Below, piece by piece: positions 13,081 through 15,325 of a stretch of DNA of 64,000 nt. Numbering within the stretch: position 1 is the first letter of the stretch; every line of letters starts with the position of its first letter. Source of the stretch: Escherichia coli (lineage in GTDB: Bacteria > Pseudomonadota > Gammaproteobacteria > Enterobacterales > Enterobacteriaceae); NCBI RefSeq assembly GCF_003334785.1, contig NZ_QOWV01000001.1. One strand, given 5' to 3'. The notes below the pieces were generated by a model, which did not search any database, was not told the DNA's origin, and saw nothing but the letters and a program-made list of their open reading frames with translations. Position numbers and translations under genes: made by a program.

Positions 13081-13345
13081 GTAAACCTCTTCCTTCAGGC
13101 TTTAAATGAGCAATAACCTTAATGAATGTGACGATACATTCTGGAATGGCAGTATTCTCGGCTATTGGCTGAAGTATACCCATACCCGGAAAGAGTTACT
13201 CCTTATTTGCCGTGTGGTTAGTCGCTTTACATCGGTAAGGGTAGGGATTTTACAGCACCGTGAAAAATCTCATAATTTTTATGAAGTCACTGTACTCACT
13301 ATGGGTAATGATAAATATCAATGATAGATAAAGTTATCTTATCGT

Positions 13346-13359
13346 TTGATTTACATCAA
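13346..13359 (+). promoter_or_regulatory. FNR box (TTGAT-N4-ATCAA) in narK promoter
   Basis: exact TTGATttacATCAA about 60 bp upstream of the narK start codon. Confidence 0.7.
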
Positions 13360-13418
13360 ATTGCCTTTAGCTACAGACACTAAGGTGGCAGACATCGAAA
13401 CGAGTATCAGAGGTGTCT

Positions 13419-14810
13419 ATGAGTCACTCATCCGCCCCCGAAAGGGCTACTGGAGCTGTCATTACAGATTGGCGACCGGAAGATCCTGCGTTCTGGCAAC
13501 AACGCGGTCAACGTATTGCCAGCCGCAACCTGTGGATTTCCGTTCCCTGTCTGCTGCTGGCGTTTTGCGTATGGATGTTGTTCAGCGCTGTTGCGGTGAA
13601 CCTACCGAAAGTCGGCTTTAATTTTACGACCGATCAGCTATTTATGTTGACTGCGCTGCCTTCGGTTTCTGGCGCGTTATTACGTGTTCCATACTCCTTT
13701 ATGGTTCCTATCTTCGGTGGTCGTCGCTGGACGGCGTTCAGCACCGGTATTCTGATTATTCCTTGCGTCTGGCTGGGTTTTGCCGTGCAGGATACCTCCA
13801 CGCCTTATAGCGTCTTCATCATCATCTCTCTGCTATGCGGCTTTGCTGGCGCGAACTTCGCATCCAGTATGGCAAACATCAGCTTCTTCTTTCCGAAACA
13901 GAAGCAGGGTGGCGCGCTGGGTCTGAATGGTGGTCTGGGAAACATGGGCGTCAGCGTCATGCAGTTGGTTGCTCCGCTGGTGGTATCACTGTCGATTTTC
14001 GCAGTATTTGGTAGCCAGGGCGTCAAACAGCCGGATGGGACTGAGCTGTATCTGGCGAATGCGTCCTGGATATGGGTGCCGTTCCTTGCCATCTTCACCA
14101 TTGCGGCGTGGTTTGGCATGAACGATCTTGCTACCTCGAAAGCCTCCATCAAGGAGCAGTTGCCGGTACTCAAACGGGGTCATCTGTGGATTATGAGCCT
14201 GCTGTATCTGGCAACCTTCGGCTCCTTCATCGGCTTCTCCGCGGGCTTTGCAATGCTGTCAAAAACGCAGTTCCCGGATGTTCAGATTCTGCAATACGCT
14301 TTCTTCGGGCCGTTTATTGGTGCGCTGGCGCGTTCTGCAGGTGGTGCATTATCTGACCGTCTGGGCGGAACTCGTGTCACGCTGGTGAACTTTATTCTGA
14401 TGGCGATTTTCAGCGGCCTGCTGTTCCTGACCTTACCGACTGACGGGCAGGGCGGAAGCTTCATGGCGTTCTTCGCGGTCTTCCTGGCGCTGTTCCTGAC
14501 AGCTGGGCTGGGTAGTGGTTCCACTTTCCAGATGATTTCAGTGATCTTCCGTAAACTGACAATGGATCGCGTGAAAGCAGAAGGGGGTTCTGACGAACGT
14601 GCGATGCGTGAAGCGGCAACCGACACGGCGGCGGCGCTGGGTTTCATCTCTGCGATTGGCGCGATTGGTGGCTTCTTTATCCCGAAAGCGTTTGGTAGCT
14701 CGCTGGCATTAACGGGTTCGCCAGTCGGCGCAATGAAGGTATTTTTGATTTTCTATATCGCCTGCGTAGTGATTACCTGGGCGGTATATGGTCGGCATTC
14801 TAAAAAATAA
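13419..14810 (+). CDS. narK: nitrate/nitrite antiporter (MFS)
   Basis: start at ATG 13419 (MSHSSAPERATGAV...); ORF track used a GTG two codons upstream. Confidence 0.94.
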   Translation: MSHSSAPERATGAVITDWRPEDPAFWQQRGQRIASRNLWISVPCLLLAFCVWMLFSAVAVNLPKVGFNFTTDQLFMLTALPSVSGALLRVPYSFMVPIFGGRRWTAFSTGILIIPCVWLGFAVQDTSTPYSVFIIISLLCGFAGANFASSMANISFFFPKQKQGGALGLNGGLGNMGVSVMQLVAPLVVSLSIFAVFGSQGVKQPDGTELYLANASWIWVPFLAIFTIAAWFGMNDLATSKASIKEQLPVLKRGHLWIMSLLYLATFGSFIGFSAGFAMLSKTQFPDVQILQYAFFGPFIGALARSAGGALSDRLGGTRVTLVNFILMAIFSGLLFLTLPTDGQGGSFMAFFAVFLALFLTAGLGSGSTFQMISVIFRKLTMDRVKAEGGSDERAMREAATDTAAALGFISAIGAIGGFFIPKAFGSSLALTGSPVGAMKVFLIFYIACVVITWAVYGRHSKK

Positions 14811-15070
14811 ACCGTTACTCGTCATACTTCGGGTTACATGTGCTGCGGCTGCGTTCATTCACCCCAGTCACTTACTTTAGTAAGCTCCTGGGATTCATTC
14901 ACTTGCCGCCTTCCTGTAAACCGAATTATATAGAGTAAAATATTTGATTATCCTTTGCGCGGCATGATGTCGCGCTTTTTTTATGCGTCATTTAGTTACA
15001 ACATACTAATGTTATATGGTTTATTTCGCCGGATTTCATTAAGAGCCATTAATATGTTACCCATGGGGAA

Positions 15071-15087
15071 TACTCCTTAATACCCAT
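15071..15087 (+). promoter_or_regulatory. NarL heptamer pair (TACTCCT / TACCCAT) in the far-upstream narG control region
   Basis: two TACYYMT heptamers about 190 bp upstream of the predicted narG transcription start. Confidence 0.55.
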
Positions 15088-15220
15088 CTGCATAAAAATC
15101 TTAATAGTTTAAATAACTACAGGTATAAAACGTCTTAATTTACAGTCTGTTATGTGGTGGCTGTTAATTATCCTAAAGGGGTATCTTAGGAATTTACTTT
15201 ATTTTTCATCCCCATCACTC

Positions 15221-15234
15221 TTGATCGTTATCAA
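15221..15234 (+). promoter_or_regulatory. FNR box of the narG promoter
   Basis: TTGATcgttATCAA about 90 bp upstream of the narG ATG. Confidence 0.75.
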
Positions 15235-15325
15235 TTCCCACGCTGTTTCAGAGCGTTACCTTGCCCTTAAACATTAGCAATGTCGATTTATCAGAGGGCC
15301 GACAGGCTCCCACAGGAGAAAACCG

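Follow-up and report, generated by a model that had tools for sequence, protein, structure and literature searches.

The nar locus of Escherichia coli was analysed in a 64,000-nucleotide stretch of contig NZ_QOWV01000001.1 (assembly GCF_003334785.1), referred to below as the window. Both intergenic gaps of this locus, one between the divergent genes narX and narK and the other between narK and narG, very probably carry class II FNR-dependent promoters under NarL/IHF control, and the narK–narG gap additionally holds the small RNA (sRNA) NarS with an inserted ERIC element, the narK terminator and the replication fork barrier TerD. The nar regulatory sites of the window are already known: they belong to some of the best-studied bacterial promoters, were mapped decades ago and have been reconfirmed by chromatin immunoprecipitation followed by sequencing (ChIP-seq). 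Our additions to this knowledge are modest and comprise the identity and population frequency of the ERIC element in NarS, a recurrent insertion in Citrobacter, and the conserved position of TerD immediately after the narK terminator.

Over the 2.4 kb surrounding the nar motifs, the sequence matches E. coli K-12 MG1655 with 100% identity, and K-12 positions are obtained by adding 1,264,538 to the window coordinate. Of 5426 complete E. coli genomes, 5416 contain this segment. Conservation was assessed by aligning both gaps across 37 Enterobacteriaceae species, the 36 others having been fetched with NarK as a probe, and the species fractions given below refer to this set. Gene coordinates (Table 1) leave 338 bp between narX and narK and 515 bp between narK and narG, the latter being the size reported by an earlier reading of the sequence that used no database searches (the original prediction). 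The motif calls of that reading were accurate to the base, both for the FNR boxes at 13346–13359 and 15221–15234 and for the heptamers TACTCCT (15071–15077) and TACCCAT (15081–15087). Beyond its list, we found TACCCAT at 15058–64, TACCCCT at 15177–83(−), narK-side heptamers beginning at 13177, 13197 and 13301(−), and an FNR-like site at 13308–21.

The exact FNR palindrome TTGATNNNNATCAA occurs three times in the 64 kb against an expectation of 0.13, a count reached by none of 100 shuffles, and the narK and narG boxes are two of these occurrences. The TTGAT and ATCAA halves of the narK box are invariant in the 37 species, as are both half-sites of the narG box. FNR ChIP-seq places peaks at narK (1,277,082) and narGHJI (1,279,003), in coordinates of an older genome version, each with a site at −41.5, and identifies both operons as directly FNR-activated (Myers et al. 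2013, PMC3688515). The published peaks are 1921 bp apart versus 1875 bp between the two boxes, a comparison that is independent of the genome version. The offset from the older to the current version, which we take to be ~777 bp, would put the peaks 15–31 bp from the boxes. From the −41.5 position of FNR we infer transcription start sites at ~13394 for narK and ~15269 for narG. Conserved TAnnnT hexamers lie at class II distance from the boxes, TAAGGT at 13381–86 (narK) and TACCTT at 15257–62 (narG), with the start sites themselves being putative. The third exact palindrome, TTGATaagcATCAA at 23607–23620, lies inside the purU coding sequence and is probably non-functional or unbound.

Together the two gaps span 853 bp and contain seven matches to the NarL heptamer TACYYMT, whereas the frequency in the remainder of the window predicts 0.54 (Poisson P = 1.7e-6). 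When compared with local dinucleotide shuffles, the narK–narG gap contains four versus 0.72 (7 of 2000 shuffles reach four) and the narX–narK gap three versus 0.58 (38 of 2000 reach three). The window-wide count of 47 versus 30 includes an excess that is partly inflated by six matches in the triplicated ldr/rdl repeat. Heptamer matches recur there every 535 bp at 4568–5901, in three tandem ldrA/B/C–rdlA/B/C toxin–antisense units; this repeat was missed by Tandem Repeats Finder, for which the longest period was 500, and was revealed by the annotation.

Upstream of narG, the −195/−185 heptamer pair (TACYCCTTAATACC) is near-invariant across the species, and the distance from the −195 heptamer to the FNR box is 150 bp in 35 of them and 149 and 151 bp in the remaining two. 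At the −89 site the GTA never varies, and in 36 of the 37 species 44 bp separate it from the FNR box. In K-12 the left half of this site (TTATCCT) is degenerate, and other genera show a clearer 7-2-7 arrangement such as TACCGCT-tt-GGTGGTA. The DNA between the conserved narG sites is mostly unalignable, and the distances are nonetheless fixed. With the start site at 15269, the heptamer centres fall at −208, −195, −185 and −89, matching the published −195 and −89 footprint regions. Phosphorylated NarL was reported to protect a high-affinity region at −89 as well as one of lower affinity at −195 from DNase I at narG, and full induction needs both regions plus FNR and IHF (PMC4549865). Activity of narG has also been described as depending jointly on FNR and NarL, and the promoter as having an IHF site besides its multiple upstream NarL sites (PMC9314961). 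The sequence studied here is the same narGHJI promoter, identical to that of MG1655, with positions equal to the published −41.5, −89 and −195 and no differences; what is added is the exact cross-genus spacing of 150 bp and 44 bp and the finding that other genera have a better 7-2-7 site at −89. Such exact spacing across genera is a prediction of an IHF-looped NarL/FNR assembly and lends it comparative support.

The tract from the narG heptamers to the FNR box (15088–15220) is 69% A+T, compared with 50% for the window, which bears out its original description as AT-rich. Alignment revealed a conserved IHF-like core within it, which has at most two mismatches to WATCARNNNNTTR in 35 of the 37 species, versus 1.8% of background 13-mers, and which never varies at its C, A and T positions. 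The exact position of this candidate core is taken from the alignment, and its centre at ~−123 fits an IHF footprint that presumably lies at ~−125. A requirement for IHF at narG has been reported (PMC3688515, PMC4549865).

Several observations weigh against this account of the two promoters. The start sites are deduced from FNR spacing, and the IHF coordinate is likewise a presumed one. A scan using the IHF consensus WATCAANNNNTTR with at most one mismatch gave no match between the K-12 −195 heptamers and the FNR box. The site came to light only through the alignment, as the core at 15140–52; this core is itself a poor IHF match in K-12, with two to three mismatches depending on the consensus (two to WATCARNNNNTTR). 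The FNR-like site at ~−79.5 of narK is not conserved outside Escherichia and its function is therefore doubtful, and the −208 heptamer of narG is limited to Escherichia as well. Finally, heptamers are short and degenerate, and single ones may be chance matches.

Taken to its extreme, the last point would make the FNR boxes and heptamers functionless chance matches in AT-rich intergenic DNA. There are 40 TACYYMT matches in the window outside the two gaps, and the palindrome inside purU shows that exact boxes can arise in unlikely places. However, chance would supply 0.13 palindromes and 0.54 heptamers where three and seven are observed, the FNR boxes are invariant amid unalignable flanks with spacing fixed to the base pair, and published ChIP-seq and footprints cover the sites. 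Conservation and the published occupancy have already refuted this explanation, to which we give practically no credence. The proposal that FNR, NarL and IHF regulate these gaps in textbook fashion is instead supported by ChIP-seq (PMC3688515), footprints (PMC4549865) and conservation in 37 species; the existing data show occupancy, contradicting the lack of protection that would speak against the sites.

In the mechanism we favour, which is the established one, an FNR dimer would bind TTGAT-N4-ATCAA at −41.5 of narK and narG when oxygen is lacking and would recruit RNA polymerase, and in the presence of nitrate phospho-NarL on TACYYMT heptamers would confer induction. At narG, NarL would occupy the proximal inverted site at ~−89 and the distal cluster at −185/−195/−208, and IHF at ~−123 in the AT-rich tract would bend the DNA and bring the distal NarL complex to the promoter. 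The narK promoter would use the same layout, with FNR at −41.5, a pair at ~−94 and distal sites at ~−194/−214, the latter possibly also serving the divergent narX.

The narX–narK gap indeed has the arrangement seen at narG: its FNR box is invariant, two heptamers form an inverted pair centred at ~−94, and further, distal ones lie at ~−214/−194. The TACTCA of the ~−94 pair is conserved across genera, and the motif together with the published NarL dependence of narK (PMC7038943) points to NarL as the protein bound there. Expression of both narK and NarS needs FNR and NarL (PMC7038943). Compared with the known K-12 narK promoter and its divergent narXL, the sequence is identical, with an FNR site at −41.5 under a ChIP-seq peak and dependence on NarL and FNR. 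The distal block (AGTATACCCATACC...TACYYCT) is strongly conserved and lies ~95–125 bp upstream of the narX start codon; judging by this position it may serve narK, narX or both.

It could be argued that the FNR box at 13346–59 and the distal heptamers at 13173–13203 act mainly on the divergent narX rather than on narK. Activation of narXL by NarL and repression of narX by FNR in vitro are both mentioned, as findings of other work, in PMC1805755, and ~95 bp separate the narX start codon from the block at 13173–86 upstream of it, which lies beside the conserved GAGAAT at 13154–59(−). The FNR box, however, is 60 bp from the narK start codon but 266 bp from that of narX, and it stands at class II distance from TAAGGT; moreover, its ChIP-seq peak was assigned to narK −41.5 as a direct activation target (PMC3688515), and narK and NarS expression require FNR and NarL (PMC7038943). 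We consider a main action on narX unlikely and retain narK as the target of the FNR box; a dual role of the distal heptamers at narK and narX is possible.

Two further conserved elements were noted in the narX–narK gap. The hexamer GAGAAT at 13154–13159 (−) resembles a −10 element for the divergent narX promoter, and in that role it would place the heptamer block 13173–86 over the narX −35 region. A block GTGAAAAA(CC)AC followed by a T-run, at 13260–13267 and ~−130 from the narK start, occupies a position equivalent to that of the narG IHF site and matched none of the consensus sequences tried.

Table 1 Features of the narX–narK–narG region, in window coordinates.
Feature	Position	Strand	Remarks
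narX	11284–13080	−	annotation
Distal NarL block AGTATACCCATACC...TACTCCT	13173–13203		heptamers 13177–83 and 13197–203; ~−214 and ~−194 from narK +1
narK inverted NarL pair TACTCAC-t-ATGGGTA	13293–13307		centre ~−94; 13301–07(−) matches TACYYMT; NarL assignment putative
Second FNR-like site ATGATaaatATCAA	13308–13321		9/10 match; 38 bp upstream of narK primary box, ~−79.5; function doubtful
narK primary FNR box TTGATttacATCAA	13346–13359		exact consensus; centre −41.5 from putative narK +1 at ~13394
narK	13419–14810	+	annotation
NarS (narS b4813, RefSeq ncRNA)	14799–14982	+	sRNA derived from narK 3′ untranslated region; K-12 form 184 nt
ERIC/IRU miniature inverted-repeat element	14816–14938	+	123 bp, boundaries ±2 bp; between narK stop codon and NarS seed
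NarS seed ATTTGATTATCCTTT	14941–14955	+	single-stranded in predicted fold
narK/NarS intrinsic terminator GCGCGGCAT-gat-GTCGCGC then T7	14957–14982	+	terminator scan; hairpin in fold
TerD, Tus-binding replication fork barrier CATTAGTATGTTGTAACTAAATG	14989–15011	−	perfect Ter match; G6 on narG side
narG −195 region, NarL heptamers	15058–15087	+	TACCCAT (−208), TACTCCT (−195), TACCCAT (−185)
IHF-like core TTACAGTCTGTTA	15140–15152	+	inside AT-rich tract; centre ~−123; seen by alignment
narG −89 region, NarL site	15168–15183		7-2-7-like inverted pair TTATCCT-aa-AGGGGTA; heptamer 15177–83(−)
narG FNR box TTGATcgttATCAA	15221–15234		exact consensus; centre −41.5
narG −10 TACCTT and 5′ untranslated region	15257–15325	+	−10 at 15257–62; putative +1 at ~15269; 57-nt leader with Shine–Dalgarno
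narG	start 15326	+	annotation

The original prediction held that the 515-bp narK–narG gap was otherwise unexplained by coding features and listed the regulatory sites for that reason. The sites are real, but the narG regulatory region and 5′ untranslated region (UTR) extend over 15058–15325 (268 bp) only, and the other 247 bp, ~48% of the gap, consist of NarS with its ERIC element, the narK terminator and TerD. By segment, the gap comprises 172 bp of narK 3′ UTR/NarS, 123 bp of them ERIC, 75 bp of TerD and spacers, 211 bp of narG control region and the 57-nt narG 5′ UTR. The small open reading frames (ORFs) in this gap are mechanical only, none being annotated. This composition shows that regulatory sequence accounts for only part of the gap.

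NarS is known as an Hfq-dependent sRNA that RNase E releases from the narK 3′ UTR and that represses nirC, its processing and its dependence on Hfq having been shown in Salmonella (Wang et al. 2020, PMC7038943). The K-12 version shares with that of Salmonella the locus, the seed, the terminator, an RNase E-type site at the end of the ORF and the pairing with nirC. It differs in length, being 184 nt by RefSeq annotation versus 63 nt in Salmonella, a difference due to an insertion; Wang et al. give an unnamed "170-nt insertion" in K-12 (PMC7038943), which we measure as 123 bp and identify as ERIC. The annotated 5′ end falls at the RNase E-type site, between GCAU and UCU within the end of the narK ORF, and the 3′ end is the narK terminator, whose stem and T-run are conserved. 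Within the seed, TTGATTATC is conserved across genera. The seed has 15 nt of perfect complementarity to nirC from −13 to +2 (the ribosome binding site), with a duplex energy of −22.7 kcal/mol versus −6.4 ± 2.1 for shuffled seeds. The predicted fold of the 184-nt RNA reaches −52 kcal/mol (z = −4.6). In Rfam, NarS matches no family at gathering level, and the only sub-threshold hit, to V_AS5 on the ERIC hairpin (30.9 bits versus a gathering score of 96), was rejected.

The insertion was identified as ERIC/IRU because of its TA termini, its long hairpin, its membership of a multi-copy family and its match to the ERIC2 primer. The narK copy has TA at both ends, is identical to its own reverse complement at 82 of 123 positions and forms a long hairpin in the NarS fold, and the median E. 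coli genome carries the family at 10 places. The ERIC2 primer (sequence from PMC11040821) matches at 14856–77(−) with two mismatches, and on inspection of the sequence ERIC1R matches only when a 1-nt deletion is allowed. ERIC/IRU elements have been described as imperfect palindromes of ~127 bp with TA termini that are intergenic, multi-copy and co-transcribed with the upstream gene. The narK copy agrees with this description and differs by its position inside a functional sRNA.

Presence of the element varies among strains. A junction-spanning search found the ERIC copy at narK in 2457 of the 5426 complete E. coli genomes (45%). A count of 4497 genomes, based on at least 80% query coverage, was rejected as an overcount, other ERIC copies aligning over ~146 nt. 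An ERIC-free gap of 392–393 bp is found in many E. coli strains, in E. albertii and another Escherichia species, and in most genera, and empty E. coli sites differ from filled ones by exactly 123 bp. Four species of the Citrobacter freundii complex also have an ERIC element, located in the ~132 nt that follow the narK stop codon and oriented the opposite way. Their element is 75% identical to the reverse complement of the K-12 copy versus 60% in the same orientation, and such a pattern would indicate independent acquisition in the same 16-nt spacer between stop codon and seed.

TerD lies between NarS and the narG control region. The Ter core AGNATGTTGTAACTAA has one perfect match in the window against 0.07 expected, and the reverse complement of the site is a perfect Ter that carries G6 and the core at positions 8–18 (ATGTTGTAACT) of the 23-bp sequence. 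A 16-nt block at 14992–15007 is conserved across genera. G6 marks the non-permissive face of Ter, at which the Tus–Ter lock forms. With this face toward narG, the site is consistent with a barrier that would block forks heading to lower coordinates (counter-clockwise), and TerD has been reported to arrest counter-clockwise forks (PMC5638614). Tus ChIP-seq shows binding to TerA–E and G, TerD included (PMC8707476), and the quantitative PCR primers for TerD in the supplement of that study (Toft et al. 2021) map to 14961–85 and 15061–85(−), flanking the site. The exact TerD 23-mer was not found in the text of the papers searched, and its position is settled by these published primers. Sequence, position between the primers and orientation all agree with TerD of the K-12 fork trap, with no differences.

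In K-12, TerD begins 6 bp past the T-run of the narK terminator and ends 47 bp ahead of the distal NarL heptamer. A Ter core is present in the narK–narG gap of 33 of the 37 species, Cedecea included; Raoultella, Pluralibacter and Pseudocitrobacter have lost it or show it in decay. The core always follows the T-run by 10–17 bp and usually precedes the −195 heptamers by 75–78 bp (mode 77), a regularity that might suggest that Tus at TerD takes part in regulation of the gap beyond its role as a fork barrier, as a narK/narG insulator or an upstream modulator of narG. The distance to the heptamers is loose, however, at 20, 66–72 or 89 bp in several genera, the four species without Ter keep the full 150-bp and 44-bp narG architecture, and no link between narG and TerD was found in the Ter papers searched, in which narG does not occur; adjacency to the terminator is equally explained by shielding of Tus–Ter from narK transcription. 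A regulatory role for Tus is therefore very unlikely in our view. Tus as a rigid component of narG was rejected on the same variable spacing and Ter-less species, and we conclude on these grounds that TerD lies next to the narG control region without being a rigid part of it.

The location of TerD directly behind the narK terminator is not mentioned in the Ter literature that we found. The fork trap of Cedecea reportedly comprises no more than two to three Ter sites. Since 33 of the 37 species, Cedecea among them, keep a Ter behind the narK terminator, the comparison suggests that TerD is an ancient, possibly ancestral, Ter site of the left arm.

Two other features of the window are recorded here. 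Strongly conserved blocks occupy 15276–15319 of the narG 5′ UTR, namely GCAATGTCGATTTA and a hairpin, GAGCC-loop-GGCUC, which is small and invariant. The CUCC of its 3′ arm could instead pair with the Shine–Dalgarno GGAG; compensatory changes were not seen across the aligned species, which leaves the hairpin short of structural proof. Downstream of narI, 22172–23084 (−) contains two tRNA-Tyr genes, tyrT and tyrV, along with rttR, tpr and four RtT repeats, as in ordinary K-12 annotation.

The long narK–narG gap is thus a patchwork in which an activation region of unusual length and rigid spacing shares the space with a 3′ UTR-derived sRNA, a terminator, a mobile element and a replication fork barrier. 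As a combined proposal, which we advance tentatively and with rather low confidence, the insertion in NarS is a strain-variable ERIC element, recurrent in Citrobacter and possibly altering NarS, and TerD is a left-arm Ter site of ancient, possibly ancestral origin. If the second part is true, the narK terminator would shield TerD from narK transcription. As for the first, ERIC orientation has been reported to affect the RNase E-linked stability of co-transcribed upstream mRNAs, and NarS dosage may therefore vary with ERIC status; NarS maturation and dosage, and hence repression of nirC, could then differ between ERIC-plus and ERIC-minus strains.

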